Virus record (IMG/VR): IMGVR_UViG_3300031555_001469
Reading direction: 5' to 3' (one strand)
Origin: a virus
Lineage: Duplodnaviria > Caudoviricetes
Length of the DNA: 64,000 bases
The notes beneath the pieces are model-generated. The model saw only the letters and a program-made list of their open reading frames with translations. It did no database searches and was not told the origin of the DNA. Shown piece by piece: positions 3,621 through 58,546 of the stretch; position 1 is the first letter of the stretch, and each line of letters starts with the position of its first letter. Both the position numbers and the translations under genes were made by a program.

Positions 3621-4844
3621 CTATCGATATACAATATTTTCTAAAATTATCTTTTGAGTCCAATGTAATTTTATATTGCCTAAATTGAATCGGCCTAAGC
3701 CTGGATATGTATATTTAGAAAAATTACGAATTGCAATTTGCCTAATATCAGGCTCTCTTACCTCCTGAAATAAATCACAAAATCCGTTTTCATAAATTAC
3801 AGGCTTTATGATTAAAATGTCTTCATCTTTATGATAGATCAACATATATCCAAATCTAGTTGAATATACATCATTAAGTTTCAATACCACTTTTGCAATA
3901 TTGGTATTAGAATAATGATATGGCATATGAAATGGCTTAGGTTCATGCATGTGAACAGGGACATGTATAATATTTCTCTCATACCATGACGGTATGAAAG
4001 TTGTTACATTAGCCGGTTCGCCGCTAAACCCTAAGTGGTTTATTTTATATAAACACATAGCATATGCGACTTCTTTTTGATTGCTGTTATATAATTCTCT
4101 CAACAAAATTTTTCTATTAAAAGGATCTCGTATAGCATCAATCTCTTCGATAACTGCTGGAAGAACTTTTGGTGAGATACCTTCTAATATTCTTTTAGAT
4201 AATCTATTGTAAGTTATCTCTTGCAATTTTTGAGGTGATGTACGGAATATATGACCACTACTAGATTCACTACAAATTTTATTAGGTCTATGAGATTCAT
4301 CATATAGTACATCCCTCAATGTAGTATATCTTCCATTATATCGTCTGAGTTCTTGCAAGGCCTTTACTTCAATCTGACGAATTCTTTCTCTAGAAACATT
4401 CATCATCTTGCCGGCTTCCTCAAGATATAGACCTCCCCAATATCTTAATGCTAAGACTCTTTGCTGACGTTCAGTTAGGGTGGATACTGCATTCCTAACA
4501 ATTTCTTTATCAATATTCTGATAAAAATCACATTGTGTAGGATATTCCTTAACTTCAGTGATTCTCTGTGCTATATAAGTTTCTTCGATTTCTTCCATTG
4601 GGAGTTTCTCGAAGCGTTGCATAGCACAGTCTATTGGAAAACTATAGCCGTGCTGCATAAGCATTTTCTTGCAGACTGGTTCCACGATAACCCTGATTGG
4701 TTTTACAGGACCATCGTATTCTAATATTGCAATATATGCTTCCTGCCTCAAGTCTTCTACATCAATTGATGTAGGATTAAATTTGTCGTAGAGTTTATCT
4801 ACAACTTTGTTTGCGGTGTTAATCGCTTCTGGTGTTAAGTTCAT
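3621..4844 (-). CDS. Sigma-70-like protein (region 2 remnant plus region 4 HTH) with long C-terminal extension
   Basis: EDLRQEAYIAIL (region 2.2-like); LTERQQRVLALRY...LEEAGKMMNVSRERIRQIEVKALQELR (RpoD-type region 4). Confidence 0.75.
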   Translation of the reverse strand: MNLTPEAINTANKVVDKLYDKFNPTSIDVEDLRQEAYIAILEYDGPVKPIRVIVEPVCKKMLMQHGYSFPIDCAMQRFEKLPMEEIEETYIAQRITEVKEYPTQCDFYQNIDKEIVRNAVSTLTERQQRVLALRYWGGLYLEEAGKMMNVSRERIRQIEVKALQELRRYNGRYTTLRDVLYDESHRPNKICSESSSGHIFRTSPQKLQEITYNRLSKRILEGISPKVLPAVIEEIDAIRDPFNRKILLRELYNSNQKEVAYAMCLYKINHLGFSGEPANVTTFIPSWYERNIIHVPVHMHEPKPFHMPYHYSNTNIAKVVLKLNDVYSTRFGYMLIYHKDEDILIIKPVIYENGFCDLFQEVREPDIRQIAIRNFSKYTYPGLGRFNLGNIKLHWTQKIILENIVYR

Positions 4845-8322: not shown

Positions 8323-8389
8323 ATAAAACACCTTCCTTTTCTTTAGATTTTATTTAAATGTTGACGGGTAAAAGAGAAAAAAAATAAAT

Positions 8390-8411
8390 GGGGAGCTATA
8401 TAAGCCTCCCC
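8390..8411 (-). terminator. Terminator of cassette 1, near-identical to 10818-10839
   Basis: GGGGAGCTATATAAGCCTCCCC followed by a U-tract on the minus strand. Confidence 0.75.
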
Positions 8412-8418
8412 CTTTATT

Positions 8419-8727
8419 TTAAGCCCAAGTTTCTCTCGTTCCGGAATAAGCTCCGAAGAAGATATTGAAGAGCACATCAAAATGCTCTTTGGTTAAAAGG
8501 AACTCTGTTCCCGCATAACCTGTTTCCCTCACAATGAGGTGATATACATCCATGTCATTCTTGCCGAAATCTACGGAAATAACTACTTCATCATACTGAT
8601 CATATACTTCAATCAGTGATGGTCTCATACTTAACTTGAGACCCCTGCGTGCTAATTCTCTACCGAATCCGAATACTTCCTTCTTTAACTCCGGCATGTT
8701 TGTAGTGTTAATTTTGCAAATAATCAT
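8419..8727 (-). CDS. Orphan ORF, cargo of structured-leader cassette 1
   Basis: 102 aa; directly follows the conserved leader. Confidence 0.75.
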   Translation of the reverse strand: MIICKINTTNMPELKKEVFGFGRELARRGLKLSMRPSLIEVYDQYDEVVISVDFGKNDMDVYHLIVRETGYAGTEFLLTKEHFDVLFNIFFGAYSGTRETWA

Positions 8728-8874
8728 ACGTCCTGCGCCCCCTTGACGCCCATGGCTTTTAATACCCCCGTAGTATTATGAGTCTTTGACTCGGATATTA
8801 AAAGGATAAGACATTGTATCCTCTTATCACTACTATAATATACAAGTATTTTTCCTAACTTTTACGGATCATAG
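8728..8874 (-). promoter_or_regulatory. Early promoter plus conserved structured RNA leader, copy 1
   Basis: Homologous to 11212-11350 (-) and 44961-45106 (+), with covarying stems. Confidence 0.8.
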
Positions 8875-10747: not shown

Positions 10748-10817
10748 TTAAATTACCTCCTTCGGCAATATTATTTTATCTTACTTAATTGTTTCAGGAA
10801 TAAATGAAAAAAATAAA

Positions 10818-10839
10818 GGGGAGCTGTATAAGCCTCCCC
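10818..10839 (-). terminator. Terminator of cassette 2
   Basis: GGGGAGCTGTATAAGCCTCCCC, 21/22 identical to 8390-8411. Confidence 0.75.
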
Positions 10840-10845
10840 AGTATT

Positions 10846-11211
10846 TTACTTTTCCCTAAGCTCTGCAAGCCAAGCCTCGGTGCTGTCCCAATTTTCTGGT
10901 TTCATATCCATAATATAGTTAGAATCCTTTAACCATGGATCAAATAAATCTTTAATATCATGAACAGTGATCTCCGCTACCATAGTGATCTGATTAGAGA
11001 CTACCTCTAATCTTATTTTTTCTCTGTTATTAGTATGATATCTATACCATACTCTGACTAATCCATTAGCTGTATTTACTAAACAGCCATCGGTATCTAA
11101 ATTACGAACAGCGGTGAGTAATTTGCGGCCATTACTATCAATACCAATAAATACCTGCCCTAAGCTAAGAGCTGTTGCCTCTGTTATTCTGTTAATTGTC
11201 ATGCTTATCAT
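10846..11211 (-). CDS. Orphan ORF, cargo of structured-leader cassette 2
   Basis: 121 aa; directly follows the conserved leader. Confidence 0.75.
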   Translation of the reverse strand: MISMTINRITEATALSLGQVFIGIDSNGRKLLTAVRNLDTDGCLVNTANGLVRVWYRYHTNNREKIRLEVVSNQITMVAEITVHDIKDLFDPWLKDSNYIMDMKPENWDSTEAWLAELREK

Positions 11212-11350
11212 ATCTCTTGCGCCTCCTTAGCGCCCGTGGCTTCTATAACCCTAAAGAGTATTATAGGTTCCTTGACCCGGATATAGAAGGATAAGATATT
11301 ATTTCTTCTTATCACTATTATAATATACAAGTATATTTGTAAATTTTTAC
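11212..11350 (-). promoter_or_regulatory. Early promoter plus conserved structured RNA leader, copy 2
   Basis: Homologous to copies 1 and 3. Confidence 0.8.
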
Positions 11351-12428: not shown

Positions 12429-15400
12429 ATGGCCTTAAAAGACGTAACTAGCTATATCAAGAATATGGGTAAGTCTGTTGGCTACTCGATGATTGATGTA
12501 TCCAAAGAAACTGCGCCAGCTATGGCAGAGTTTGTGGATACTAATAAGGAATTATTTAAAGACGTATATGCTGCCGTAAAAGATCATAAGAAGTTTATGG
12601 AAAAAACCAAAGCTCTTATCACTGGTAGTAAAGTATATGAAGCCGCTGATGTCGGTCTCAAAGCTATGAAAGAAGATATCAGAACTGGTAACTTCTATAA
12701 CAAAGCTAGAACTGCTGAATTTGAAGCAAAATACAGTGGTTTTAATATGGATGATATGGATGCTGATGATATAGAGTTCAGTATGAAGGACGACGATGAT
12801 GGTAGTTTCGGAAGCGTAGAAATCTCTGATGGAGATAAGTACGTTGGAAGCACTGTTGAATCTGCAGTAAAAGCTTCTGCTGACCTTACATCAACTACTA
12901 TAGCTAGATCTGCTGAATATATGGGTTCTGTTACAAAGGCAAGCACAAGTGCTATTATTGTACAGAATGAAAGATTATTCGGTAATCTTAGTAATAGAAT
13001 TGTAGCTATGCATGGTGGTATAAATGATTTATATAAACTTCATGCTACTGCTATTGAAGCTACAGGTAAGATGAACAAAGAGTTCTATGAGAACACTACG
13101 AATCTTATGCGTGAATCTAATGCTATGCTTAAAGAAATGCTTGAGATGCAGAGAAATATGTACAAGCAGGAACAGCAGAAAGCAAAGGAAAAGACTACGT
13201 ATGGTGATATCGTAGGTAGTAACGGTATGCCAGATCTTAAAGAATATGCTAAAGTTATTGGCAAGAACTTTAAAGGTGCGACTGGTCAGTTTGGTGATAT
13301 GCTCGGTATGTTTGGTAAAGACAGTAATATGCTTGCAATGATGGTAGCGAGTCCATTAATGTTTATACCTAACTTCATAGCAAAAGCTGTTATACCTGCT
13401 GCTGTAGCGTCTAATATGTCAGAACTTGATAAAAGTTTATCTGGCGTATTCGGAACGTCTATAGCAAGATTTAATAAAATGGCTAAAAAAGATAATAGTC
13501 CTATTGGAAGTTTTATAGGAAAATTATTCGGTATTAGCTCTAATGTAAAGGGATCTATAGATACTGGTAATTATAATAAGGGAGCTGTACCTTTTGATGG
13601 AATTACTAGAAAATCTATTATTGAAGTAATCCCAGGTCACCTTAGAAGAATCGAAGCTATTTTATCTGGAATGGGAGATGAAAGAATATACGATTATGAT
13701 AAGGGTAAATGGACCTCTGCAAGTAAGCTTAAATCTCAGTATGATTCTATTGCAGACCAGCACAGAAATAGTGCTTTTTCTGATCTTAGGAATCATGCTA
13801 AGAGATATACAAAGACTGCAGGATTTTCCAAATCTCAGAAAAAGAAATTCGATGATGATTTTGAATTATTCCTGAAGCAGGTATATGAAGAGGGTGGTTA
13901 TCTTCCTTCTAATCTTCGTAAGATGAAGAAAGAAGACTACAATTATAATATATCTGATATGAATTTTGAACTTATTAGAAACATCCTTACTACTATGAAT
14001 AAGGGTGATGTTATGAGTATTGCTGGTAATGTATTAGAAGCTAGAAATAGACATAACAAAACTATTTCTGATTTAGAATTATCTGGATCAGCATTATATA
14101 ACTATCTTTTTGACGGCTCTGATATGAAGAATAGTTATAAGAAATTTAAGAACAAAGATGGAAAAATTACCGGATTTGATACAGCTGTTAATATAGCGAC
14201 TGTTACCGATAATCTTGGTAATAATATTTTCTTCTACCTTCAGAATATGCTTAAGACCATGGAATGGTATAAACTTAACTGGGGAATGGGAGGAGGTTCT
14301 TCTAATTCTAGAAAGTTTAGAAATATTAAGGATTCTGATTGGGATTCGTATGTTAATCATAGCTCTTCTTCTAATAGTAGAAAATATGAAGATGAACGAG
14401 CTTATGATGAAAAAATACGTAAGAGTGTTGCGAATGGTACCTACGTTAACTTTATTGATGCAGATTCCGATGAAGACATGGCTGAAGCTCAGGCAATGCT
14501 TAGAGGTAAAGCTGTTTTAGCTGGAATCAAAGATGAAGATGATAGACGTAAGGAATATAGATCTAAACACTATGGCGCATTTTATAAAGAACAAGATGAC
14601 TTAGATATGGGCAGATATAGTCATGGTAAGCATAATAAAGGTATTGTTACAAGACTTAGAGAAGCTGGTACTTTAATGGATAAATTTAACGTTATCTCTG
14701 AAGGTATTAAGGATTTTGCTAAGTCTCCTGCAACCTTATTAGCATCCGTAATTGATAAGGCTAATCAGTCTATATTTAGTTTCTTTTATCAGGACCCTCT
14801 TTATGATGAAGATGGTAATAAGATAAAAGGATTTATGGATTTAATGACTTCTAAGATGAAGACTAGTTTCGACAAGTTTAATAAATTCTTAGATGATAAG
14901 ATTTTAGATCCGTTAAAGAAGAAACTTGGAGTTGATAGTTTCGGAGATCTCGCTGATAAGTTCCTTGGAATGTTTGGATTAGACAAAAAGGGGCGTAAAG
15001 AAAAGTGGGACAATTTATTTGGCGAGGGTACATTCTTCGGTGATTTTAAGAAAGGTTTCAAAGATGAAATTGATCGTATCACTAAAGAAGTAGCTGAATC
15101 TACAAAAGCCGCTATGAAAGCAACTTATGGTAAAGCTGGTGAAGCTATTTTTGGAACTAATTCTACTTCAAATCCAGTAGTAGATAAGAAACGTCAAGCC
15201 GAACTTGCAAGACAGGATTTATTAAATAGATCTTCTGCAAGAGCAAGAGCATATCTTACAGGTACAGGATATGATGGAGAAGACTTTGAAGCTCGTGTAG
15301 CTGAACTCGCCGGAAGTTCTAAAAATATGAGAATTGTTAGAGCTTGGGAAGATGAGAATGCTGCTAGAGAAAACGAGTATGGTAATTTATTTAATTCTGG

Positions 15401-18400
15401 CGATACATTAGATTCTTGGATTAACTCGGGGTCTATTAAAGACCAGAATGCTAAAAGAAATATGATGGCATATTATGCTAGCAGAGGTCAGGAAGCTTCC
15501 GAATATACTAAAAACGGTAACGTTCTTGACTATATTAATATGATAGATAAAGCACTTCGTACACCTAAAAAAGTTCGTCGTGCTAATAGATTCGTTAATG
15601 AATCTAACTCTCAGGTGGCTAGAGCTACTGGTAGAGAATCTGAAACAGATTCGGAGGGAGACCCCCGACAGCGTGGTATACATGCGTTTGGCGCTAGGAT
15701 GGTAACTAAAGCAGGATTAACTATGATTTCTCCTGGCGAGGCTATTATCCCTGCAAATATGAATCCTTTTAATCCTGACATGGACACTGTTGATATTAAT
15801 CAGCAGTTGGCTAATGAAAAGAGATTAAAGAATAAATTTATAGGTAGTCTTAGAGATAGAATTGCTACTAAAGCTGGCGGTGACGATGGTACAGGTGTTC
15901 CATTAGCAGAATCTAAGTCCTTAGCTCAACAGGCTGGAGGTAAGATTAAGGATGGTGCTACTGAATTAGTTACTCGTATTGTATTAGGTAGTGATAAAGA
16001 AGCTAAAGCATTTAAAGATGCTACTTCTGAAATTACTCAAAAGATTAAAGGTTATCTTCCTACAATGGCTGCTACTGGTCTTATCGGTGGTGGTGTAGGT
16101 TTATTAACTGGTATCGGTGGACCTATCTTAGGTGCAGTAGCTGGTGCCGGTTTAGGTTTACTTCAAAAATCTGATACTTTACAGAATTGGTTATTCGGTG
16201 AAGTTATTGGAGAAGATGAAAACGGAAAAGATATCCGTAAGGGAGGAGTTATCTCCCAGAAGATGCAACAATCTATGCAGAAGTATTTACCAGATTTAAA
16301 GAACTTTGGTATTGCTGGTGCATTGACAGGCTTATTCACTCCATTAGGACCTGTTGGTGGCTTAATGGTTGGATCTGCTCTTGCATATGTAAAGAACAAT
16401 GATAAATTCGCTCAGATATTATACGGCGATGTAATTGGTAAGGATGAGAACGGAAAAGATATCAGAGATGGCGGTATACTTGGTAAGAGCCATATGGATA
16501 AGCTTAAAAAGGCTGCTCCTAATATCTTAGGCGGTGCTGCTATCGGTGCTTTAGCCGGCCCATTCGGTCTTGTAGGAAACTTAGCCTTAGGTTCTGCTAT
16601 AGGCTTGGCTTCGTCTACAGAAGGATTTAAGACTCTTATTTTTGGTGAAGAAGTTGATGGAGAAAGAACTGGTGGTATCGCTGGTGCTCTTCATGATGGC
16701 TTTGTTGAACCAATGAAAGAGTTTGGAAAATCTATTAAAGATGGATTTGATAGTTTTATTAAGGATGATATTTTAAGTCCTTTAGCTGGGGCAATTGAAC
16801 CTTTAACCAAAGAAATAAGTGATATGATTAAGGGTATAGTGATGTTTGTGCCTAATATCTTCACTAAGTTCATGGAAAATAGAATCACGGCTCCATTAGC
16901 AAATTGGATGGAAGAAAGAATATTCAATCCGCTTGGAAAAGCAACCAAGTTTTTATTATCAGCTCCAATTAAATTAGCTAAAACTGTAGTGTCTGCTCCT
17001 TTTAAAGCTGTAGGCGCTTTAGGAAATGCTGTTAGAGGAAAGCATATAGCTAAGGGTAAAGCGGGATACATGACAGCTAGAGAACGTCTCGATTTTAGAG
17101 CAAAGCATAAGGTTGGTATGGCTTTATCTATTCATCGTGACAAGTATAGAGAAGAAGATGAAGTTATTGCTAACTTAGACGCTTCTTCTGTTCAGAAACT
17201 TAAGGATGTACTTGATGCTCAGCTTACTGGAGGAAAGAGTCTTACTCAGAATATCGAAAAGACTAAGAATAAAATCTATGTAGCGGTTGACAAGTACTTT
17301 AAAGATAATGATAAAGTTCTCTTATTGAATAAAGGAACTCGTTCTAAGATACTTAAAGCTATTCAGAAAGAGAATTATAAAGAAGCTGTAACACTTATTC
17401 GTACTGGTAAGGGTAAAGATGGTAGACCTATACCTGAATCAGAAAGAGAAGCTTTATTAGAAGAACTCGTACCTCTTATTGAGACTTATGAGAATCTTAA
17501 AGCTAGAAAGAAACAGCTCGATGATCTTGGTGAAGTTGATACAGTCGCTCTTGCAAGAGAGATGGGATTCAAGAAGTTTAAAGGAACCAAGAAAGATTTA
17601 AAGAAATACTCTGATCTTCTTCGGGGTACTTATAATGCTTTTGAAGCAGAAGGTGCTTATAAGACAGATACTTTGGGTCTTAATGACTCTGAAGATACTG
17701 AAATTGTAAGCAATCAGTCACTTGAAACACAGACAGATCGTATTGTCGAATCTATTGATAATTTAACAGCAATGATTAAAGGTTTAATAGATCCTGATAG
17801 TATAACTGCTGTTAGTGAAGAACATGGTGACACATATGAAAGTAATTTAGCTAGTTTCTCTGAAGCTATAGCTAATGGTAAAGCTGAAGATTTGCGTGCT
17901 GCTAGAGCTAGAGTAACAGATTTAGCTAAAATTTATGGCTTACACGGCGGTCTCTATGGGGACGACGGTGAAGTTAAACATGATATATTAAGCGGTCTTA
18001 TTAATAATGAGGCTGGGTTTGATGCACTTATGAGAGCAAAGAATGATGGAACTAACTTAAGAGTTGGTAATATCGGAAAGTATCTCTATACGTCTCAAAC
18101 TGATAATAAGAATTTCCTTAGATTACAGGAACTTGGTAATTATACTGATCTGCCAGAAGATATGATAGATGCAGTATTAAAGCTCAATAAGTCTCAGTAT
18201 GACAGATTATTTACAGCTGTCTCTAGAGGAGCTAAAGTTGTCGATGCTAATGGAAAATTTGATAAGGATGCTTTTGATGTATTAATTAATTCTGATGGTA
18301 ATTATAATTGGGAGACTAATACAGGAAAAGCATATAAGGGCAAGGTTAACGAAATGGCTCATTATACAGTAAAATCTGTAAGAGCTATTAAGAACGCTTT

Positions 18401-21400
18401 TGCTGGAAGTATAAATAAAACCTTCGATCACTTCTTCATTCAGTTCCAGGGTCTTGGTTTAGTTGGATCAGGTCCAGGAGCTATATGTAGTGAAAAACAG
18501 TTACAATGGTTGTATAAGAATGCTTATTATGAACTGGATAGGGCCGCTTCTGCTAAAGATCCAGAACAGGCATTTATTGAGTTATATAATAAGTATAAGA
18601 ATAAATTACCAAGTACAGCTACGATACTCTCTGCAGGTGAATCTGTAGTTGATGCATCTGAAATAGAAACTCGTGCTTTTGGTAAATTTAAGAACCTTAT
18701 TACCAATAATAAATTTGTTGCCAAATTTAAAAAGATTGGTACTAGTGATTCTTCTGATTCTAAGGAATCTCAGGAAGAAGCTAATAAAAATGCCTTAGAA
18801 AATGAACGTCAGAATGTCATTGCGTCTGGTGTAACTACTGTCGCTGAAGCTATTCATAACTGGAGAGCTAAGTATGACAAAGACCAGAAAGATGAAGAGA
18901 GTGGAAATAACGGTTTCTGGGGCAAACTTCTTAAGGGATTAGTTTTAGGAGGTAGAGTTCTTGGTACTATTGGTATTGGTGCATTCGGTGCTGGTATCTA
19001 CAAGAATTATTTAGAACCTCAAGTTGCTAATATCTTCAATGATCATGTAAAACCTTGGTGGACTGATAAAGCGCTTCCTGCACTGAAAGAGTCTGCTTTT
19101 GGTAAAGCGATTATGAGAGGTATGGATTATATCACTGGTAGCGGTGAATTTGCTGAAACTGGTGGTTTAAGAGGAACCCTTGCAAAGGGATTTGACTGGT
19201 TCTTGGGAAATGGTGAATATAATGGAAACGGTTTAATCGATAAAGCTAAAGGATTTATTATGGATACAATCGTCCCTAACATGTTTACCGGTCTCGAATG
19301 GGTTATAGGAGATTTAGCTCCTAAGATTTTATCAGGCTTATTTACAGCATTACCTAAGTTATTAGGAGCAACTGTAAGAGGTATTGGTAATTTCTTTAAG
19401 TTATCTATCACTAGTCTGCTTAAGCCTAACGTTAAGACTTATGCTGCTGATGATTTTGATATATCGTACGATGGAAATATGCCTACTTCATCTGTAATTT
19501 CTAAGGGTGGTAATAGTAGTGTATTGAGTAGATGGGGCTTAGCTAAGCCAGCCACCTACGATTTTAATGGTACTGTAAGTACATCTGGAGTGAGTTCTTC
19601 TGATTCTGGAAGTATATCTGGTACTGAATATTATGTAAATGAAAGCGGAAGATCTACTGCCGCTGCTGTAGGAGAAGCTGTTACAAGAGGCACATTAACT
19701 AAAGGTGGAGGGCTTATCAAAGCATTTGCTAAGGGCGGATTAGGCAATAAAGTGCTTAAAAACACCGTTGGTAAATTAGGTATTGCCGGAAAAGCGGTTA
19801 GTGGTGCTGTAGGAGGCGGATCTACATTATTAACCAAAATTACATCTGGAGGTAATTCTTTATTAAGAAAAGCTTTAGATAAATTTGGTGTTAACCCTGA
19901 TAAGTGGTTAGGTAATGCTGCTGGTGAAGTAACCGAAGAAGCTGCAGAATCTGCAGTTAAGCAAGGAGCAGAAGCTGCTGCTAAGCAGACTGCTGAAACT
20001 GTTGGTGAAAAGGTTATGAAAGAAACTGCAGAAAATGTTACCGAGAAAGCTGCTACAGGTGCCGGTAAAGGAATCGTTGAGAAAGTAACTAAATTTGTTA
20101 CTGAGAAGCTTACCGGTTTATTTGCTAATGGAACTGTAATTAGCGCAATTAAAAAAGCACTTAAAGCTAGTGGTAAAGAGGCTACTGAAAAAGCTGCAAA
20201 GAAAGCTGCAAAAGAACTCGGTGAAAATATTATTAAGAAATTAGTAAAGAATTTAGCCGAGAAAGCTGCTAAGGCTGCTGCAAAAGCTGTTGCTAAGTTA
20301 AGTGCATCTATAGCATCTGCTGGTATTGTTACAATAGCATTCATCGTTGCAGATTTTGTATCTGGTATGAAAAATGCTGAAACAATATTAGGCGTAACAG
20401 ATGGTGTATCTGTATTAGAAAGATTGTTATGTGGTGTTATTAATGCTATCACAGAGAATCTTACCTTTGGGTTAATTCCTGCCGATACAATAGTTGATAT
20501 TGTTGTAGAATATGCAGCCCCTGCATTAGGTATTGATACTTCTAAAATAACAGCTAGAAGAGAAGCTGCTATTAAAGAAATCGAAGAATGGAACAAAGAA
20601 CACCCTGATGATCAATACGAAAGTGTTGAATCTTATAATAAGAAAGACCGATGGACTACCAAAGCATGGAAGAGTGTTAAAGGTTGGTTCGGTGGTGGAA
20701 GCGATAAGGAAGATGAAAAGCGTTTAAAGGCTTCTTCGTCTACATCATCTTATGCTGCTTCTGCTAGTGGTACTTCTTCTCGTGTTAGAGCTGCAGGTAT
20801 GTATGGCACAGGTTCTGGAAAGCATCTGAGTCAGATTGATCCTAGATATGCTAATATGAGATTTAATAGCTCTGCAGATTCTGCAAGACAGACTATCGGA
20901 GATTCCGGTTGTGGTCCAGTTGCAGCTGCACAAGTTGTTCAGAGATATTCTGGTTATGGAGCTGACCCTGTCAATGCAGCTAGATATGCAATCAAGAATG
21001 GTTATAAGGAGACTAATGGAGGTACTTATCCTGCATTCTTCAGAGACTACTTGGGAGCAAATAATATCAATACTGAATTATTGACAGATATTAGATCCAC
21101 AGTAAATAGAATTGGTTCTGGGTCTCCTGTTATCTTAATGGGTAAGGATAGTTCTAATTCTAAATCTACACCTTACGGTGCGTCACCTCACTATGTGGTG
21201 GCAACAGGATTTGATAAGAGAGGTAATATCATAATTCAAAATCCTGAATCTATGACTCCAGATTCTATATACAATGCTGGTGATGTGTTAAGCAAGTCTA
21301 GTTTAGCAATCGGAACTAGCTATGGTACAGGAAATGGATATAATAAATTAATGGGTATGCCGATGTTTGGAAGAGGTAGAGCTGCTATGACTACTAACAT

Positions 21401-22760
21401 GGTCTATGACGGTGGTAGTGGAACTGGTACTACATCTGATTATATCGGTAAACACGTTAAGAAGTTTGAATCCGGTAGTACGGGTAGTTTAACATTTGCT
21501 AAATCTTCGGGAAATGACTGGGGATTAAGCTGTGGTACTTACCAGTTTACATTACGTTGGGGAAATGCTATCAAGTTCTTGACAACTTACTTCCCTAATA
21601 TAGTAAACCAGCCTGGATATTATGTGGTATTCCACAACAAGAAGGATTTTCCTTCTAAAACATGGCCGGGTGCTACTTATTGTTCTGGCCCAGCTCAGGT
21701 TGAGAAAGTTTGGAGAGCTTGCTATAATTCGGTGGGCGCTGATGCTTTCTTTAAATATGAATGGGATCATGCAAAGAATAATTGGTACAAGGGCGCATGT
21801 AATTTACTTTCGGATATATTTAATCCTAACACTCACTCTAGATCTATGCAGGAATGTATTTGGTCTTGGGCTATTCATAGTGGTGTTGGTGGATGTAATA
21901 GTGATTTCCGTGCTGCTATTGCAGCTGCTGGAATTACAGATCCACAGAAAGCTTCTGAAGCTAAATTGCTTAAAGCTTGTTATGATTACAGATATAATAA
22001 GTATAAGTTTAAGCGTTATAGTACTGATAGTGGTCAGGAGAGAGATGTTGTGTCTTCTTTAATTGGTAAGAAACCAATTGATTATAGTGGACGAAGCCTT
22101 GGAACTTCTACTGCTGGTATTAGTACTAATGATGAGAAGAATGCATTGTTAAATGAAAATGCAAGCACTTCTTCTGGAATTAATGGTATCTTTAGTGAGA
22201 TTGAAAATATTGTTAAGGGTACTAAGTTATACGAACTTTATAACGGTCTCTTCAATGGTAGTACAACATCTGAAGATGCAACCGAAGCTACTTCTGGTAC
22301 AGGAAGTAACAGAAAGATTAATTCTGCTATTAGAGGAATTATTAAGGGAAGTTCTGGTATGGGTACAACTACAGCCACTGCTAATCTTAATAAGTCCGTA
22401 AGCGGATATAAGCTTAATACGTCTAGTATCAATACACCTAGTGTATCTATTAAACGTACAACAGCAACTAATAATTCTACAAACTCTTTAGATTACAGTA
22501 TGATATTAACAGCGATGATAGAGATCTTATCTACTATTGCTAATAATACAGCTGCTATTCAGAAGATAGTGGATTTATTATCCAATTCACTTGGTATAGA
22601 TACTTCGTCGATTAACACAAAAACTGATTCTACGGGTAAGATTAAAGCTAAGCTTAGATCTAAATTGCAAGAATTAGGTGGAGGATCTTCGGGTTCTGGA
22701 ACCAATAATCCTGATACATTAGCACTTGTTAACGCAATGGCTGCTATTGCTAGAGGATAA
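12429..22760 (+). CDS. Giant tape-measure/tail-associated lysin with C39-like peptidase and lysozyme-like domains
   Basis: 3443 aa, helical, Gly/Ala-rich hydrophobic segments; SGCGPVAAA...HYVVATG (C39-like); KKFESG...GLSCGTYQF (lysozyme-like). Confidence 0.75.
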   Translation: MALKDVTSYIKNMGKSVGYSMIDVSKETAPAMAEFVDTNKELFKDVYAAVKDHKKFMEKTKALITGSKVYEAADVGLKAMKEDIRTGNFYNKARTAEFEAKYSGFNMDDMDADDIEFSMKDDDDGSFGSVEISDGDKYVGSTVESAVKASADLTSTTIARSAEYMGSVTKASTSAIIVQNERLFGNLSNRIVAMHGGINDLYKLHATAIEATGKMNKEFYENTTNLMRESNAMLKEMLEMQRNMYKQEQQKAKEKTTYGDIVGSNGMPDLKEYAKVIGKNFKGATGQFGDMLGMFGKDSNMLAMMVASPLMFIPNFIAKAVIPAAVASNMSELDKSLSGVFGTSIARFNKMAKKDNSPIGSFIGKLFGISSNVKGSIDTGNYNKGAVPFDGITRKSIIEVIPGHLRRIEAILSGMGDERIYDYDKGKWTSASKLKSQYDSIADQHRNSAFSDLRNHAKRYTKTAGFSKSQKKKFDDDFELFLKQVYEEGGYLPSNLRKMKKEDYNYNISDMNFELIRNILTTMNKGDVMSIAGNVLEARNRHNKTISDLELSGSALYNYLFDGSDMKNSYKKFKNKDGKITGFDTAVNIATVTDNLGNNIFFYLQNMLKTMEWYKLNWGMGGGSSNSRKFRNIKDSDWDSYVNHSSSSNSRKYEDERAYDEKIRKSVANGTYVNFIDADSDEDMAEAQAMLRGKAVLAGIKDEDDRRKEYRSKHYGAFYKEQDDLDMGRYSHGKHNKGIVTRLREAGTLMDKFNVISEGIKDFAKSPATLLASVIDKANQSIFSFFYQDPLYDEDGNKIKGFMDLMTSKMKTSFDKFNKFLDDKILDPLKKKLGVDSFGDLADKFLGMFGLDKKGRKEKWDNLFGEGTFFGDFKKGFKDEIDRITKEVAESTKAAMKATYGKAGEAIFGTNSTSNPVVDKKRQAELARQDLLNRSSARARAYLTGTGYDGEDFEARVAELAGSSKNMRIVRAWEDENAARENEYGNLFNSGDTLDSWINSGSIKDQNAKRNMMAYYASRGQEASEYTKNGNVLDYINMIDKALRTPKKVRRANRFVNESNSQVARATGRESETDSEGDPRQRGIHAFGARMVTKAGLTMISPGEAIIPANMNPFNPDMDTVDINQQLANEKRLKNKFIGSLRDRIATKAGGDDGTGVPLAESKSLAQQAGGKIKDGATELVTRIVLGSDKEAKAFKDATSEITQKIKGYLPTMAATGLIGGGVGLLTGIGGPILGAVAGAGLGLLQKSDTLQNWLFGEVIGEDENGKDIRKGGVISQKMQQSMQKYLPDLKNFGIAGALTGLFTPLGPVGGLMVGSALAYVKNNDKFAQILYGDVIGKDENGKDIRDGGILGKSHMDKLKKAAPNILGGAAIGALAGPFGLVGNLALGSAIGLASSTEGFKTLIFGEEVDGERTGGIAGALHDGFVEPMKEFGKSIKDGFDSFIKDDILSPLAGAIEPLTKEISDMIKGIVMFVPNIFTKFMENRITAPLANWMEERIFNPLGKATKFLLSAPIKLAKTVVSAPFKAVGALGNAVRGKHIAKGKAGYMTARERLDFRAKHKVGMALSIHRDKYREEDEVIANLDASSVQKLKDVLDAQLTGGKSLTQNIEKTKNKIYVAVDKYFKDNDKVLLLNKGTRSKILKAIQKENYKEAVTLIRTGKGKDGRPIPESEREALLEELVPLIETYENLKARKKQLDDLGEVDTVALAREMGFKKFKGTKKDLKKYSDLLRGTYNAFEAEGAYKTDTLGLNDSEDTEIVSNQSLETQTDRIVESIDNLTAMIKGLIDPDSITAVSEEHGDTYESNLASFSEAIANGKAEDLRAARARVTDLAKIYGLHGGLYGDDGEVKHDILSGLINNEAGFDALMRAKNDGTNLRVGNIGKYLYTSQTDNKNFLRLQELGNYTDLPEDMIDAVLKLNKSQYDRLFTAVSRGAKVVDANGKFDKDAFDVLINSDGNYNWETNTGKAYKGKVNEMAHYTVKSVRAIKNAFAGSINKTFDHFFIQFQGLGLVGSGPGAICSEKQLQWLYKNAYYELDRAASAKDPEQAFIELYNKYKNKLPSTATILSAGESVVDASEIETRAFGKFKNLITNNKFVAKFKKIGTSDSSDSKESQEEANKNALENERQNVIASGVTTVAEAIHNWRAKYDKDQKDEESGNNGFWGKLLKGLVLGGRVLGTIGIGAFGAGIYKNYLEPQVANIFNDHVKPWWTDKALPALKESAFGKAIMRGMDYITGSGEFAETGGLRGTLAKGFDWFLGNGEYNGNGLIDKAKGFIMDTIVPNMFTGLEWVIGDLAPKILSGLFTALPKLLGATVRGIGNFFKLSITSLLKPNVKTYAADDFDISYDGNMPTSSVISKGGNSSVLSRWGLAKPATYDFNGTVSTSGVSSSDSGSISGTEYYVNESGRSTAAAVGEAVTRGTLTKGGGLIKAFAKGGLGNKVLKNTVGKLGIAGKAVSGAVGGGSTLLTKITSGGNSLLRKALDKFGVNPDKWLGNAAGEVTEEAAESAVKQGAEAAAKQTAETVGEKVMKETAENVTEKAATGAGKGIVEKVTKFVTEKLTGLFANGTVISAIKKALKASGKEATEKAAKKAAKELGENIIKKLVKNLAEKAAKAAAKAVAKLSASIASAGIVTIAFIVADFVSGMKNAETILGVTDGVSVLERLLCGVINAITENLTFGLIPADTIVDIVVEYAAPALGIDTSKITARREAAIKEIEEWNKEHPDDQYESVESYNKKDRWTTKAWKSVKGWFGGGSDKEDEKRLKASSSTSSYAASASGTSSRVRAAGMYGTGSGKHLSQIDPRYANMRFNSSADSARQTIGDSGCGPVAAAQVVQRYSGYGADPVNAARYAIKNGYKETNGGTYPAFFRDYLGANNINTELLTDIRSTVNRIGSGSPVILMGKDSSNSKSTPYGASPHYVVATGFDKRGNIIIQNPESMTPDSIYNAGDVLSKSSLAIGTSYGTGNGYNKLMGMPMFGRGRAAMTTNMVYDGGSGTGTTSDYIGKHVKKFESGSTGSLTFAKSSGNDWGLSCGTYQFTLRWGNAIKFLTTYFPNIVNQPGYYVVFHNKKDFPSKTWPGATYCSGPAQVEKVWRACYNSVGADAFFKYEWDHAKNNWYKGACNLLSDIFNPNTHSRSMQECIWSWAIHSGVGGCNSDFRAAIAAAGITDPQKASEAKLLKACYDYRYNKYKFKRYSTDSGQERDVVSSLIGKKPIDYSGRSLGTSTAGISTNDEKNALLNENASTSSGINGIFSEIENIVKGTKLYELYNGLFNGSTTSEDATEATSGTGSNRKINSAIRGIIKGSSGMGTTTATANLNKSVSGYKLNTSSINTPSVSIKRTTATNNSTNSLDYSMILTAMIEILSTIANNTAAIQKIVDLLSNSLGIDTSSINTKTDSTGKIKAKLRSKLQELGGGSSGSGTNNPDTLALVNAMAAIARG

Positions 22761-44960: not shown

Positions 44961-45106
44961 CTATGATCCGTAAAAGTCAATGTAATTACTTGCATATTAT
45001 AATAGTGATAAGATGAAATAATATCTTATTCTTCTATATATCCAGCTCAAAGAAGCTACAATACTACGGGGTTATAAGAAGTCATGCGCAGGAGGCGCTT
45101 TATATA
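44961..45106 (+). promoter_or_regulatory. Early promoter plus conserved structured RNA leader, copy 3
   Basis: Homologous to 8728-8874, including an identical upstream 17-mer CTATGATCCGTAAAAGT. Confidence 0.8.
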
Positions 45107-45256
45107 ATGAGTAACGAAAATGATATTATTGCACAGAGACTTGCAACACTTTGGCAAGAAATGAACAACCGCCATGAAAATGAAAACATTGATAAAATTT
45201 CGGCTAGAATTAAAGCTGCTCTAGTCGAATTAAACAAGGCTCATGGTATAGCTTAA
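45107..45256 (+). CDS. Orphan ORF (49 aa), cargo of cassette 3 (not in ORF track)
   Basis: MSNENDIIAQRLATLWQEMNNRHENENIDKISARIKAALVELNKAHGIA; AGGAGG SD; terminator at about 45259-45290. Confidence 0.7.
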   Translation: MSNENDIIAQRLATLWQEMNNRHENENIDKISARIKAALVELNKAHGIA

Positions 45257-45293
45257 ATAAAGAGGGAACCAATTAAGGTTCCCTCTTTATTTT

Positions 45294-48269
45294 TTATCTC
45301 AGAATATCTTTTATTAATTTAAATGCTCCCTTGATAGTACTATTATCTATCTTAATATAAGAATCAGAAAATGGTGACTGTTCAAAGTATGCATTGAAAT
45401 TAAAGTCTTTCTCAGCTTCTGTAACCATCTTCAAATACTTATGGAAATCATTAAGCACTCTTGCTCTGGTCTTAGTAAGCTCGACTTTATTTTTTACATT
45501 AGAAGAGAGTCTACTTTCAATGTAATTATTCAGGAACCATAATCTACATAACTCGTATTTCATTCCTTCATAATTCTTATTCTCTTCATAAGTTCTTAAT
45601 AACTTATGAGATCCCTGATATTCATTTTCAGGATTGAATCCTTTTATAGGTTTGATATAGAGATTGCCTGCATCATCTAACTTAACCGGCAATTCTTTTA
45701 CTTCTAATAAAGGATTTAAGACATTCTTCAAAGCATCAGGTACAGCATATTTACTTATAAACTCAACAGCCTCTTTAATAGCTTTAGCTCTGTTACTAAT
45801 AGCTTTAGTTAATAAAGCAGCTTTACTGGATTTAAAGTCTTTTACTTTACCCTCATATATCTTATAGATCTTATTACTGTATTTGGAAGCTTTGTAGAAA
45901 TCATTAGGATTTACTAAAGAGCTCGCTTTTCCAGTAAGATCGATATCAGTAAGTTTTAAGATGTTATCTACAAACTCAGAGCAGATCATATTCATATCAG
46001 ACTTAGTAGGAATCTTAAGAGCTAACAATATACACTTAACGAAATTATAGCTGGTTTCCTTAGCGTTATTAAGATACTCAGTAAGAACCTGTTTAATCTT
46101 TTTATAATCCTTCTCTTTAACAAATATTGTATATACACCTAATGTATTTTCTTTAGGATAAGCATCAATCGATTCGATAGACAAACCTCCTAAAGAACCT
46201 TCACTGTTTAATACATTGAAAGAATATAACTTCTCAAAATCCCTATCAAGACATATAGCAGCATGGGAAAATGGTCCTTTAGTAACTGCTTTAATAGTTT
46301 TACTAAATAAGGTTTCTCCTTCTACTAATACAATATGAATAGGATGAAGTTTCTTTCTATCAGCAGCTTCCATCAAGATTTCACAACAGTTTTCAGTATA
46401 ACCCTTATAACGCTTAGGGAGATCTATAATTGTATCATTGAATCTATTCTGAAGTTGCTCTAATACTCTTTTTCTAGCAGCCATTCTATTAGCGTCAGAG
46501 AATTCAATATAAGGATTCCAACCTAACTCTAAGATAGACTGGTTCAGCTTATTAAGTTCATCTTCTGGTGCAGTAGTTGCTTCTAGTATTTCTTTTTTAT
46601 ACATAAGATTTCTTACAGCCTTAACCCATTCAGATGGATTGTAAGACTCTGTTCTAAAACCGTGCATAAGCATCTTATACTGTTCATACCATTCTTTAGA
46701 ACTCATATCCCCAACCATATTCTTTTCATCTGAAATAGGGAAGAATCTGTTGTTCTCATCATCAAATACACCAAGATTATCTAACTCAATAGGAGTATAG
46801 AATGGCATATCTAATGGGAATATCTCACTGTCAATTACATTGACAATATCATTTGGGTCTTCGTCTTTATAGATATTTCTTACATCCATAAGAGATGACT
46901 CAGTAACTACCATACTACTCTCAGATAAAGCATCTTCTAAATCTAAGATCTTATCTATTGTAGTATCATGATTCTTAGAAAGAATAGTATTTGTAATAAT
47001 ATCTTCCTTAGATATCTCATCATAGTCATCAAGTTTGGTTTGAATTGCTAAGAAATAAGACTTCTGGAATTCATAGAAATCCTGATTGGATACGCCAAAG
47101 ACTTCTAAAGATTTCCAGTCAGAAACTCTCTTATGCTTTCTAACCATAGAGTTATATTTATACCACATAGTCTCTAACTCCTCTAAATTCTTAGCTGGAG
47201 TTACGATATTGATATTAGAACCTAAAGCCCAGGTAATGACAGATTCTACATCATCTTCGGTATATTTCTTGATATTATACTCTTTTTCAGGAGCATCCAT
47301 AAACTCTTCATCAGCGGATTCAGTATATGCATATATACGATCCTTTAAGAAATTAAATTGTTTTACCTGTTTCATATAATGCTTATTTGTAAAGATAGTA
47401 AAAGCATTAAACCAATTTACATAAGCATCATAATACCCACTCCGAGTTATATCTCTAGATAAGTCTCTATTACTTCTTCTAAACATAGTTGTGCTCACAG
47501 AAGTACCTTTAATAATACATGGTTTACAGGATAAATACTCTGGTGTATAAGCTCTAAATAAGTGAGTCCCCTCAATTACATATTGCTTACCATTATTAGC
47601 GTGCTCACCAATAAACCAATTTAAGAAATGTATAGCCTGATCTACTATTACTTTATCTTCCCAAGTATATTCCTTTGATATAAAAGGAACGTCTTTTCTT
47701 TTAAAATATTTAGCAGCATCAGCACATTCAGATTTAAGCTGTTCGAACTTTCTCTTTCTCTTTTCATCAGTATAACTTTCCATACATACAATGGTTACGT
47801 TATCCAAATGAATTAATTCAGCTTTATAATTCTTAGCAACAGACTCACTGATTGTAGATTTACCACTACCAGATAATCCTGTTATGAATAAAATATTATT
47901 CTTTTTCTTGATCCAATCTTCAAAGTTTAAGATTATGTCATTTTTCTCTAAAAATTCAGAATCTAAATCAGCTTCTAAATTAATAGTACCCTGAGGGGTA
48001 ACAATAATCTCTTTATCATCAATAGGTTCCTTAAGAAACTTAGATTTAGTATCATCATAAATCTGCTGATTAGTTTTACCATATTTATGAATAGCAGCTG
48101 CATCAGAATCCTTCTTCTGAGCATTAGGCTGAGATTCGTATTCATCCATATCCCGTTCTAATTCTTCTTCAGAACTATTAGGATCTAAGACTATAGTATC
48201 TTCACTTAAAGTGAATTTATCTGTATAGAATTCATCAAAAAATGTAGAATTACTTCTATACCCGTTCAT
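45294..48269 (-). CDS. Multidomain virion-type protein with P-loop domain and permuted papain-like (YiiX/NlpC-P60) domain
   Basis: FITGLSGSGKST; FSHAAI...YNF...MICSEFV (His before Cys). Confidence 0.65.
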   Translation of the reverse strand: MNGYRSNSTFFDEFYTDKFTLSEDTIVLDPNSSEEELERDMDEYESQPNAQKKDSDAAAIHKYGKTNQQIYDDTKSKFLKEPIDDKEIIVTPQGTINLEADLDSEFLEKNDIILNFEDWIKKKNNILFITGLSGSGKSTISESVAKNYKAELIHLDNVTIVCMESYTDEKRKRKFEQLKSECADAAKYFKRKDVPFISKEYTWEDKVIVDQAIHFLNWFIGEHANNGKQYVIEGTHLFRAYTPEYLSCKPCIIKGTSVSTTMFRRSNRDLSRDITRSGYYDAYVNWFNAFTIFTNKHYMKQVKQFNFLKDRIYAYTESADEEFMDAPEKEYNIKKYTEDDVESVITWALGSNINIVTPAKNLEELETMWYKYNSMVRKHKRVSDWKSLEVFGVSNQDFYEFQKSYFLAIQTKLDDYDEISKEDIITNTILSKNHDTTIDKILDLEDALSESSMVVTESSLMDVRNIYKDEDPNDIVNVIDSEIFPLDMPFYTPIELDNLGVFDDENNRFFPISDEKNMVGDMSSKEWYEQYKMLMHGFRTESYNPSEWVKAVRNLMYKKEILEATTAPEDELNKLNQSILELGWNPYIEFSDANRMAARKRVLEQLQNRFNDTIIDLPKRYKGYTENCCEILMEAADRKKLHPIHIVLVEGETLFSKTIKAVTKGPFSHAAICLDRDFEKLYSFNVLNSEGSLGGLSIESIDAYPKENTLGVYTIFVKEKDYKKIKQVLTEYLNNAKETSYNFVKCILLALKIPTKSDMNMICSEFVDNILKLTDIDLTGKASSLVNPNDFYKASKYSNKIYKIYEGKVKDFKSSKAALLTKAISNRAKAIKEAVEFISKYAVPDALKNVLNPLLEVKELPVKLDDAGNLYIKPIKGFNPENEYQGSHKLLRTYEENKNYEGMKYELCRLWFLNNYIESRLSSNVKNKVELTKTRARVLNDFHKYLKMVTEAEKDFNFNAYFEQSPFSDSYIKIDNSTIKGAFKLIKDILR

Positions 48270-52026: not shown

Positions 52027-52084
52027 TATCCCTTTTTTAACGTTTTGACATATGATTAATAATAAAAAGGAGGTGTTATTCGAA

Positions 52085-53854
52085 ATGGAAAATGATATCC
52101 TTTTTCCAGATGCTAGGTCTTCTTATGATAGATTTGAAGACACTGAAGAAAACATGATGTTTGTAAGAGGTCTTAATCCTACTCAAAGAATAGTACAGGA
52201 AGCTGGTTCGAGAAGATTCCATATTGAACCATTAGATCCAGATAAACTTATTAAAATTAATGATTTAAAAGAAATAACTAACCCTACATTCTTTAGTGGT
52301 AATAATGTACCTACTCCAGATGGATTATTATCTAATGAAATATTTGGTTATTCTAAAGAAGATAGAGGTAATACTTTTGCATACATATCTTTATCAGAAT
52401 GGTTTATGCATCCATTGCATTATAAGATATGGTGTAAGATTGACTCAAAGATTAAATCTGTTATCCATGAAGTGGATACCTTCTCCATAGTTGGAGGAAA
52501 GATTACTCAAGATCCAAATGGTAAATCGGGTTTAAAATGGTTAAGAGAAAATATAGATCAGATTAAGTTTGATTTATATGAATCTAAGCAGCGTGATAAT
52601 GTAGAGTTCTTAAAGAAGTTTAAGGATACTATGTTTATCAGAAACTTTATAGTTATACCAGCATATTACAGAGACGTCAATAGTACAGGGGGATATGTTG
52701 GTGTAGGTGAAATAAATCAGATGTATGCTTCTCTATTAATCGCAGTACGTGGTCTGAGAGAATCGAAAGATTACGGATTGAGTTTATCTGGAGCAACCAG
52801 GGGAAGAGTACAGGAGACATTGGTAAATATATATAAATGGTTTGCTGATGGCTCTACATCAACTGGTTCTAAAGATGGTGTAGGTATGGCAGGTAAGTAT
52901 GGTATTTTAAGAAGAGCTAATCTTAATAAAACTACAGACTACTCTTCTAGATTAGTATTATCTGCTCCGATGTTAAGATGTGAAAACTTAGAAGATATGA
53001 TGGTAGATACAGATTATTCTGCTTTACCATTAGCTTCAGCGTGTGTAAACTTCTACCCTTATATGCTTTATTATATAAGATCTTTCTTTGAAAAAGAATT
53101 AGGTGGAAACCCTCGCTATGATTATATTGATAAGAATGGCAAACTGCAGTCAATTAAATTAAAAGACTACAGAATAGAATATTCTGATGAAAGAATCAAA
53201 AAAGAAATCGACAGATTTGTTCATGGTTATGCGAATCGTTTCATTCCTATTGAGGTTCCAAATGAAGAAGGCAAAAAGATCTACATGCAGTTTAAAGGTC
53301 ATTTGACCACTTCAGAAGAATTTTTAAAAGGCGAAATAGATCCTGCTTCACATACTATGGTCGAAAGAGACTTAACGTGGTGTGATCTTTTATATATTGC
53401 AGCATGTGAAGTATCTAAAGATAAAATGGTTCTTATAACAAGATACCCTATGGACTCATATTATAACCAGTTCCCATCTAAAGTAAGAATATCTTCTACT
53501 AAAGAAACAGAACCAATGGTTATAGATGGCGTATTCTATAAATGGTATCCAAAGATCAGGCAGGAAGATATGGGAACCCAAACATCTAATAAATTTATTG
53601 ATACTTTAAATATAAGTAACGTATTGCTTAAAGCTATTGTCGGAGATTATGATGGTGACCAAGTTTCAGTTAAACCATTATATTCTATAGAAGCTAATGC
53701 TGAATTAGAAAAGCATTTAGATTCTAAGTCACGCTTTATTTCGCTCGGTGGTGAAAACGTTCGTGTTACTACTAATGAAGGAATTCAAACATTGTATAAC
53801 CTTACGATTCATATGCCTAATAGTAATCTCGGTGGCCCTAAGTTCAAAAAGTAA
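52085..53854 (+). CDS. Multisubunit RNA polymerase beta' subunit, N-terminal half with catalytic motif (probably virion RNAP)
   Basis: DGLLSNEIFG, VIPAYYRD, GILRRANLNKTTDYSSRLVL, LITRYP, GDYDGDQ. Confidence 0.9.
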   Translation: MENDILFPDARSSYDRFEDTEENMMFVRGLNPTQRIVQEAGSRRFHIEPLDPDKLIKINDLKEITNPTFFSGNNVPTPDGLLSNEIFGYSKEDRGNTFAYISLSEWFMHPLHYKIWCKIDSKIKSVIHEVDTFSIVGGKITQDPNGKSGLKWLRENIDQIKFDLYESKQRDNVEFLKKFKDTMFIRNFIVIPAYYRDVNSTGGYVGVGEINQMYASLLIAVRGLRESKDYGLSLSGATRGRVQETLVNIYKWFADGSTSTGSKDGVGMAGKYGILRRANLNKTTDYSSRLVLSAPMLRCENLEDMMVDTDYSALPLASACVNFYPYMLYYIRSFFEKELGGNPRYDYIDKNGKLQSIKLKDYRIEYSDERIKKEIDRFVHGYANRFIPIEVPNEEGKKIYMQFKGHLTTSEEFLKGEIDPASHTMVERDLTWCDLLYIAACEVSKDKMVLITRYPMDSYYNQFPSKVRISSTKETEPMVIDGVFYKWYPKIRQEDMGTQTSNKFIDTLNISNVLLKAIVGDYDGDQVSVKPLYSIEANAELEKHLDSKSRFISLGGENVRVTTNEGIQTLYNLTIHMPNSNLGGPKFKK

Positions 53855-57569: not shown

Positions 57570-58475
57570 TTAATTTTTCTTAGTAGCAATCTCTCTGTCA
57601 ATCTTATCCTTGTATAACTTAGCCGCAGATTCATATATTTTTTCAAGTTCCCAGCTATCAGGAATGAAGAAATGAGTAGGCTTTTTAATTACACCCATGT
57701 TATGATCGTCTGTAAGCCAGCCAAATAACTTGTGCCAATCTTCAGGAGCAACGCTAACAGTAAAGATAGGATAGCCATTGCCACCTCTTACTATTAAATC
57801 ATAGTAATCTTCGCAACCCTGTACATGAACTGCGTAAGCAATATCCTCTTCAACAATAATTTCTTCAAGAGAGAATAAGTGCTTAATTCTGTTTAAAGAA
57901 TACTTAATTGAATCATACTTATTGGATATTTCTTCGAAAGTATTCTTCATAATCTCGATAGCTTCATCAATCAGCTCTCCATCAGTTGCGTCGATAAAAG
58001 TAACAGATTCAGTCGGAGTATCAACTTCGTCTTCCGTAATAAAATTCATGAAAGGCGCAGTAATCTCTGTTTCATAGATGAATGCTTCGCTACACTCATA
58101 GCCGACGAATTCGTTAATATTAGTGAATCCGAGCTTCTCTACATATTTAGCCTGCCATTCCAAAGTGCCAGCATACTGTTCTGCTGTAGGCTCTATTGGG
58201 AAATAATCTCTACTTAAGCAAGAGTTTAATGCAATAGGCATCTTGTCTTCGAAGTAGCTAATAAACTTATCAACCGCTTCCTTAGAAACTAACTTACCTC
58301 TACAGCTAAACTCAGTAAAGATATCATGAATTACTACAACATTCTTACAATCTGGTAAGATAGCAAAAATGTCATCTACCAAGAAACTGTTTCTGCAAGG
58401 TGAATCTGCACCCTGTCTTTCATAAATAATGTAACTGATTGTTGTTGGTCCGTAGACAAACTTTCTTTTTTCCAT
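57570..58475 (-). CDS. Hypothetical protein with GNAT-like N-terminal domain
   Basis: IHDIFTEFSCRGKLVSKEAV (motif A-like), YVEKLGF (motif B-like). Confidence 0.5.
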   Translation of the reverse strand: MEKRKFVYGPTTISYIIYERQGADSPCRNSFLVDDIFAILPDCKNVVVIHDIFTEFSCRGKLVSKEAVDKFISYFEDKMPIALNSCLSRDYFPIEPTAEQYAGTLEWQAKYVEKLGFTNINEFVGYECSEAFIYETEITAPFMNFITEDEVDTPTESVTFIDATDGELIDEAIEIMKNTFEEISNKYDSIKYSLNRIKHLFSLEEIIVEEDIAYAVHVQGCEDYYDLIVRGGNGYPIFTVSVAPEDWHKLFGWLTDDHNMGVIKKPTHFFIPDSWELEKIYESAAKLYKDKIDREIATKKN

Positions 58476-58546
58476 AATGGAATCCTCCTTTAAAAATATT
58501 AGTAGTGTAAACCGTCATTGGTTTACACTACTATAATATACAATTG

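Follow-up and report, generated by a model that had tools for sequence, protein, structure and literature searches.

A repeated structured RNA leader with helix-preserving substitutions behind predicted early promoters of an AR9-like jumbo phage

The early promoters of phage AR9 are served by an injected virion RNA polymerase (RNAP). The study that mapped their starts gives the consensus AAATATATATTAT-N6-G(+1) and small early genes driven from such promoters, and in the passages searched the words "hairpin" and "stem-loop" do not occur (Lavysh et al., 2017; PMC5312081). In T4-type phages, PeSL is described as a small composite terminator/promoter sequence (PMC4122927), repeated beside variable, mostly orphan ORFs in plastic genome regions (PMC2839356, PMC4122927). 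PeSL repeats also lie at the borders of indels that distinguish close relatives. Their promoter is a host sigma-70 early promoter. Hairpins at the 5' end of Firmicute mRNAs act as stabilisers and roadblocks (PMC3997798), and comparative genomics has yielded orphan structured cis-regulatory RNA motifs, recognised by covariation, conserved unpaired nucleotides and a place in the 5' UTR. The early RNase III sites of T7 and SP82 are repeated hairpins with internal loops.

The element analysed here occurs three times in a 64,000-nt stretch of phage DNA (the window), as an AR9-type early promoter followed by a leader with four predicted helices (P1 to P4) and a small gene. It shares with AR9 the promoter core TATATTAT and the G start 6 nt downstream (PMC5312081), and the phage has its own gene for a beta' subunit homologous to that of the AR9 virion RNAP. 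No copy of the leader was found in the AR9 genome. Like PeSL, it is a repeated early regulatory sequence beside variable ORFs, and its repeats likewise mark an indel edge, as the whole unit of copy 2 is missing from the related contig L004. Unlike PeSL, it is not a terminator-then-promoter composite (a terminator abuts the promoter only in contig L016), and its conserved structure, about 100 nt behind a phage-RNAP promoter, lies downstream of the predicted +1, inside the mRNA, with helix-preserving substitutions around a fixed bulge. The Firmicute stabilisers resemble it in that pairing within P1 is predicted to begin at the very first nucleotide of the transcript, but they cover P1 only, leave P2, P3 and the bulge unexplained, and P1 is itself absent from contig L011. 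The features of orphan RNA motifs are all found here, but what the leader accompanies is a class of promoter, not a family of genes, and it is absent from Rfam 15. We regard it as a new family within a known kind, the cis-regulatory leader RNAs.

The source of the window is an uncultivated gut jumbo phage of AR9-like type. Positions 52052-53854 match PHROG 2986 at 4e-70, and the RNAP beta' homologue encoded there shares about 33% identity with its counterparts in BpSp, Goe21, AR9, PBS1 (Bacillus), LPJP1 (Listeria) and S6 (Staphylococcus). The AR9 gene that aligns to it, the one subunit examined, is annotated as a virion RNAP subunit. The longest contig carrying the gene downstream of copy 2 (P0002) measures 229,809 bp, and blastn and megablast searches of a phage collection returned nothing alike at the DNA level.

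The three copies lie at 8725-8874 (minus strand), 11209-11350 (minus) and 44961-45109 (plus). When aligned, they show a mean column identity of 79% over about 190 nt; the similarity extends from 20-52 nt ahead of the predicted +1 to the start codon. A 26-nt consensus spanning the promoter and the first hairpin matches the window at these copies only and was absent from all 100 shuffles, while a covariance model run with filters off over the 64 kb returned exactly three copies, the next best match having an E-value of 0.3. A preliminary description had reported three copies with this layout and had proposed the covariance search; the copies lie where it placed them, their parts follow in the order given, and the search added no further copy. 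The motifs it quoted also read as described in all three copies, namely GTAAAA-N11-TACTTGYATATTAT, the GAUAAG/CUUAUY hairpin, the outer stems, the inner helix in three versions (GAGU/ACUC, GGGU/ACCU and AGCU/AGCU) and an unpaired AYAAUACU.

The promoter core of copy 1 (TACTTG plus TATATTAT) occupies 8835..8848 on the minus strand, that of copy 2 lies at 11320..11333 (minus), and copy 3 carries a CATATTAT variant at 44987..45000 (plus). All seven full copies, including four from related contigs, contain [T/C]ATATTAT-N6-G and thus fit the AR9 early consensus (PMC5312081). The element had been said to begin with a promoter, which is supported by analogy with AR9; on the same analogy, the starts are predicted at G 8828, G 11313 and G 45007, in each case the first base of P1. 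A start there would include the entire element in the transcript. Elsewhere in the window, about eight TATATTAT-N6-G/A sites lie immediately upstream of a Shine-Dalgarno (SD) sequence and start codon and are without this leader, the leaders of several being only about 15-25 nt long. Therefore, the long leader is special to a subset of the early genes. A sigma-70-type scan of the region stayed at background level (20 found against 15 ± 4).

Further upstream, a box consisting of CTATGATCCG and an A-rich tail is found about 36-51 nt before the +1 in four copies at different loci. In copy 1 it lies at 8859..8874 (minus) and overlaps the last codons of a NUDIX gene; the others are at 44961..44976 (plus) in copy 3, at L016:415-430 and in L026 upstream of 9910. 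This box may be a cassette boundary or the site of a regulator. Separately, an early promoter at 58526-58546 (minus) is identical to that of copy 1 from -17 to +1, and a different 7-bp hairpin begins at its +1, upstream of the gene at 58475. Early mRNAs of this phage may more widely carry such a 5'-terminal hairpin.

Relatives were reached via the 438-aa gene that neighbours copy 2, by a full HMMER search with P0002 and by a metagenome motif scan. These gave four further full copies, L009:5039-5140, L011:3280-3374, L016:459-565 (from the motif scan) and L026:9789-9893, and three cut-off copies, all in related phage contigs. The L026 copy is the positional orthologue of copy 3; the 51-aa ORF behind it and the 49-aa ORF of the window share 80% identity. 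The cut-off copies sit at the extreme ends of contigs L005, L008 and L012, a placement explained by assemblers breaking at repeats; L010 gave only a weak contig-end match (E 0.5). The leader is lacking in L013 and L015, which carry more distant P0002 relatives, and was found in none of five cultured AR9-like phages (AR9, BpSp, LPJP1, S6 and Fusobacterium phage JD-Fnp1). Viral contigs yielded no match to pattern scans with four motif versions or to a protein-based scan. The first metagenome motif scan found none and the second one true copy, that in L016. A first motif scan of a genome collection was without a match, and the Stygiolobus and Chitinophaga matches of a second were rejected by the RNA model as chance.

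The preliminary description had not recognised a known RNA family, and Rfam comparison leads to the same view. The window has no match in Rfam 15 at gathering thresholds, copy 1 has none even at E <= 10, and the two matches of the L016 copy are at chance level (E 6-8, scores far below gathering). The papers that we consulted contain no description of the leader.

The leader folds into four predicted helices. In copy 1 (minus strand), P1 is a hairpin at 8805..8828 that begins at the predicted +1, and the central domain of P2, bulge and P3 occupies 8756..8804. Here the outer stem P2 has 12 bp (8793-8804 with 8756-8767; 11-12 bp across copies), and P3 is a 4-bp helix with its loop (8780-8792), stacked on P2, the loop measuring 5-8 nt across copies. 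A one-sided bulge of 10-13 nt separates P3 from the 3' strand of P2. It reads AUAAUACUAC in most copies, including the 10-nt bulge of copy 1 at 8770-8779, and its AAUACU is invariant in all nine sequences. P4, at 8735..8749, is a GC-rich hairpin (4-5 bp across copies) with the SD in its loop. Copies 2 and 3 have the same four helices at 11212..11313 (minus; P3 GGGU/ACCU) and 45007..45106 (plus; P3 AGCU/AGCU, P4 at 45086-45098), respectively. The CAARG loop described earlier for P3 holds for the window copies but is less conserved in the relatives, where CAAUGA and CAUUGG occur. P1 is predicted at the +1 in six of the seven full copies and, being absent from L011, is dispensable.

RNAalifold recovered P1 to P4 unaided from six full copies. 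Minimum free energy folds of the four relatives' copies tested share this architecture (z -1.9 to -2.9); within the window, copies 1 and 3 show the shared helices, the z-score of copy 1 is -2.7, and those of copies 2 and 3 alone are weak (-0.8 to -0.9). Across nine aligned sequences, 97.9% of pair cells are standard pairs, against 41-52% when the 3' partners were slid by 1-3 columns, and both partners differ in 10 pairs, where the slid controls give 0-3. None of 500 shuffles reached the observed pair values, and an eight-sequence alignment gives the same result. These figures come from a small alignment that is fitted to the model and so leans towards structure, and its copies are partly related by recombination. 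All four pairs of P3 and five of the 11 pairs of P2 vary, so that compensatory change maintains these two helices. P3 exists in six versions, each fully paired, as GAAC/GUUC, AGGU/ACCU and AGAC/GUCU join the three of the window; L016 and L011 have a different sequence in the lower half of P2 that still pairs, and P4 of L009, in its proper register, shows a C-G to U-A exchange. A U.G pair kept in six of seven copies would be C.A on the opposite strand, which assigns the structure to the sense strand. Leader identity at the locus of copy 2 is 70% (L009) and 63% (L011), compared with 79-89% in the flanks and 55-58% in the gene behind it. Together with the kept pairing, this low identity indicates that the fold has been retained through considerable sequence change. 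At the locus of copy 3, the leader is 85% identical and the neighbouring coding DNA 77-79%. The covariation behind the selected RNA fold proposed in the preliminary description thus persists once orthologues from other phages enlarge the alignment, and we consider it highly probable that the element is a selected, transcribed leader RNA.

Another explanation would be a role at the DNA level, for instance an attC-like recombination site that works as a single-stranded DNA hairpin, or a second promoter. The cassette-like association with variable ORFs would suit such a site, and as DNA the bulge reads [T/C]A[T/C]AAT, which is TATAAT-like. However, the structure spans exactly from +1 to the start codon with the SD included. 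Copies 1 to 3 show no consistent -35 at 17 bp upstream of the TATAAT-like sequence, the sigma-70 scan was at background as described above, and no recombinase was identified next to the cassettes. We regard a DNA-level function as extremely unlikely.

The last hairpin had been thought to wrap the SD as a translational switch. A GCG...CGC hairpin is indeed present, but the AGGAG core of the SD sits in its loop rather than in the stem. Partition-function folding gives this core an unpaired probability of at least 0.94 in six of the seven full copies, and only the last one or two G residues are paired. No conserved alternative or anti-SD pairing was found in the alignment of copies, and the CUUCU-like anti-SD stretches of P2 are gone in L016 and L011. 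The predicted ensemble therefore shows an SD that is displayed, not sequestered, and an on/off switch is not supported.

The same observations bear on a riboswitch, in which the P2-bulge-P3 domain would bind a small molecule and set translation. The position in the 5' UTR, the covarying stems, the conserved unpaired nucleotides and the lack of an Rfam match would all be in keeping with one. However, riboswitches hide or free the SD or a terminator by mutually exclusive pairings, and the leader has no such expression platform, as the predicted ensemble leaves its SD open. The genes downstream share neither function nor family. The ligand-responsive switch suggested earlier is thus very unlikely.

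Several other devices were sought in the leader and rejected. A conserved upstream ORF fails since its ATG is found in some copies only, and the second site of a CsrA-type pair of GGA sites is not conserved. Neither the bulge nor the P3 loop has a conserved pseudoknot partner inside the leader, and competition of the bulge with the 5' strand of P2 works in copies 1 and 2 only. A terminator within the leader was dismissed because its stem has only 4-5 bp, which is too short, and copies 1 and 2 have no U tract. No antisense or complementary RNA partner for the leader was found in the window.

The leader could also be a processing or decay signal, cut by an endoribonuclease that times the decay of the early mRNA or releases a small RNA. 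The cut could be made by RNase III in the stacked P2/P3 helices, by RNase Y within the AU-rich bulge or by a RegB-like enzyme at GGAG. The stacked stem of 15-16 bp with its asymmetric, sequence-conserved, AU-rich bulge of 10-13 nt next to helices invites comparison with T7 R1.1 and SP82-type sites, and GGAG is exposed in the P4 loop. RNase III sites are typically about 20 bp, and the stem here is shorter. RNase Y reportedly cleaves single-stranded AU-rich RNA close to structured elements (PMC3997798). As a separate explanation we find processing unlikely, and it is really a special case of the reading that we prefer, with a nuclease as the trans-acting factor.

In this preferred reading, the element serves as a structured, cis-acting 5' untranslated leader, about 100 nt long, for immediate-early messages of the AR9-like jumbo phage and is read by a trans-acting factor; overall, we think this reading is probably correct. 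The leader would be fused to the virion-RNAP early promoter and common to a set of unrelated small early genes. Transcription starting at the G six bases after TATATTAT would let P1 close the 5' end of the mRNA, where it would most likely protect against 5'-end-dependent decay. In Firmicutes, 5' roadblocks are known to slow such decay (PMC3997798). A single trans-acting factor would dock at the P2-bulge-P3 domain; it is most likely a protein of the phage or its host, possibly a nuclease, or else a phage RNA. This factor would jointly control the stability, processing or translation of these early messages, possibly as a timed shut-off or boost, and P4 would present the SD to the ribosome or to the factor rather than hide it. 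That the bulge keeps its sequence while the stems around it vary freely points to sequence-specific recognition, and since many unrelated messages carry the bulge, one common partner fits best. We nevertheless hold the trans-factor step tentatively, as somewhat less likely than the reverse.

A bolder version is that the leader defines a post-transcriptional regulon, in which one dedicated factor reads both the bulge and the SD loop and switches host-takeover messages on or off together. The factor may be a phage protein, either delivered by the virion or made early, an anti-SD small RNA of the phage, or a signal from host defence or a second messenger. We offer this as speculation that is more likely wrong than right by some distance; if true, the leader would represent a novel class of regulatory RNA in phages, one coupled to a virion-RNAP promoter. 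In the papers that we consulted, post-transcriptional control of jumbo-phage early genes is not described. These genes, transcribed by the injected polymerase, probably include host-takeover and anti-defence functions, and a shared leader would be a handle for finding the factor that times their expression. The leader model (R2) can also serve as a sequence tag for spotting immediate-early genes in uncultivated phages.

The genes behind the leader are a 102-aa ORF (P0001, 8419..8727, minus), which belongs to no family, the 121-aa P0002 (10846..11211, minus) and the 49-aa ORF (45107..45256, plus). They bear no similarity to one another, and their proteins gave nothing significant against Pfam and PHROG. 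P0002 belongs to a small, fast-evolving family of 97-128 aa with eight clusters at the 50% level (P0017-P0023); a word-based homologue search recovered only P0002 itself. Its AlphaFold model (pLDDT 83) is of alpha/beta type and has no match in the PDB with E <= 0.001. Each gene is followed by a terminator, read from the sequence in copy 1 as a hairpin and T run at 8375..8412 (minus), and located at 10807..10839 (minus) in copy 2 and about 45258-45295 (plus) in copy 3. Between the cassette terminators and the next genes, AACA-N6-TA motifs are found at 8351-8362 (minus), before a peptidase C1 gene, and at 10782-10793 (minus), before the 438-aa gene. This motif is the AR9 late-promoter consensus (PMC5312081), and with late-type motifs on the following genes, each unit appears as a self-contained early gene set among later genes. 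In L004, an AACA-N6-TA motif also precedes the 438-aa gene.

Promoter, leader, small gene and terminator together behave as a movable cassette, a unit of gene gain, loss and exchange. L004 lacks the complete unit of copy 2 between the same, identical flanks and has no leader copy in 21 kb around that locus, while it keeps the unit of copy 3. The terminators of copies 1 and 2 are nearly identical. The cargo genes are unrelated or fast-diverging, as seen in L005, where the P0002 orthologue is 40% identical at the amino acid level beside an 89% identical neighbour, and the 3' half of the L005 leader is closer to copy 3 than to its positional counterpart, copy 2. These findings, and the breaks of relatives' contigs inside the element, would also be expected of a PeSL-like recombination module and nothing else, in which the element serves homologous exchange of small genes and its similarity reflects recent duplication or gene conversion with no function at the RNA level. 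However, exchange needs identity and not pairing, and the stems differ, in six P3 versions, yet still pair; P2 has a new sequence in L016 and L011, with the bulge left unchanged. We judge recombination as the sole role to be quite improbable. A recombination role and an RNA role can coexist. The leader also illustrates how gene cassettes in phage genomes can carry a regulatory RNA along with them.

Some minor observations concern neighbouring genes. In contig L002, a single 364-aa ORF (509-1603) stands where the window has the 438-aa gene and a 168-aa NUDIX gene, as a strain variant; both window genes encode NUDIX domains, so the L002 ORF may be a deletion between them. The window also contains a 3443-aa ORF at 12429-22760 (plus), whose 3592-aa homologue in L004 gives Pfam hits to Peptidase_C39_2 and to a VgrG3-like C-terminal domain. 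Finally, the 407-aa protein encoded at 3621-4844 (minus) has Sigma70_r4 Pfam hits in identical-strain contigs and could be a phage transcription factor.
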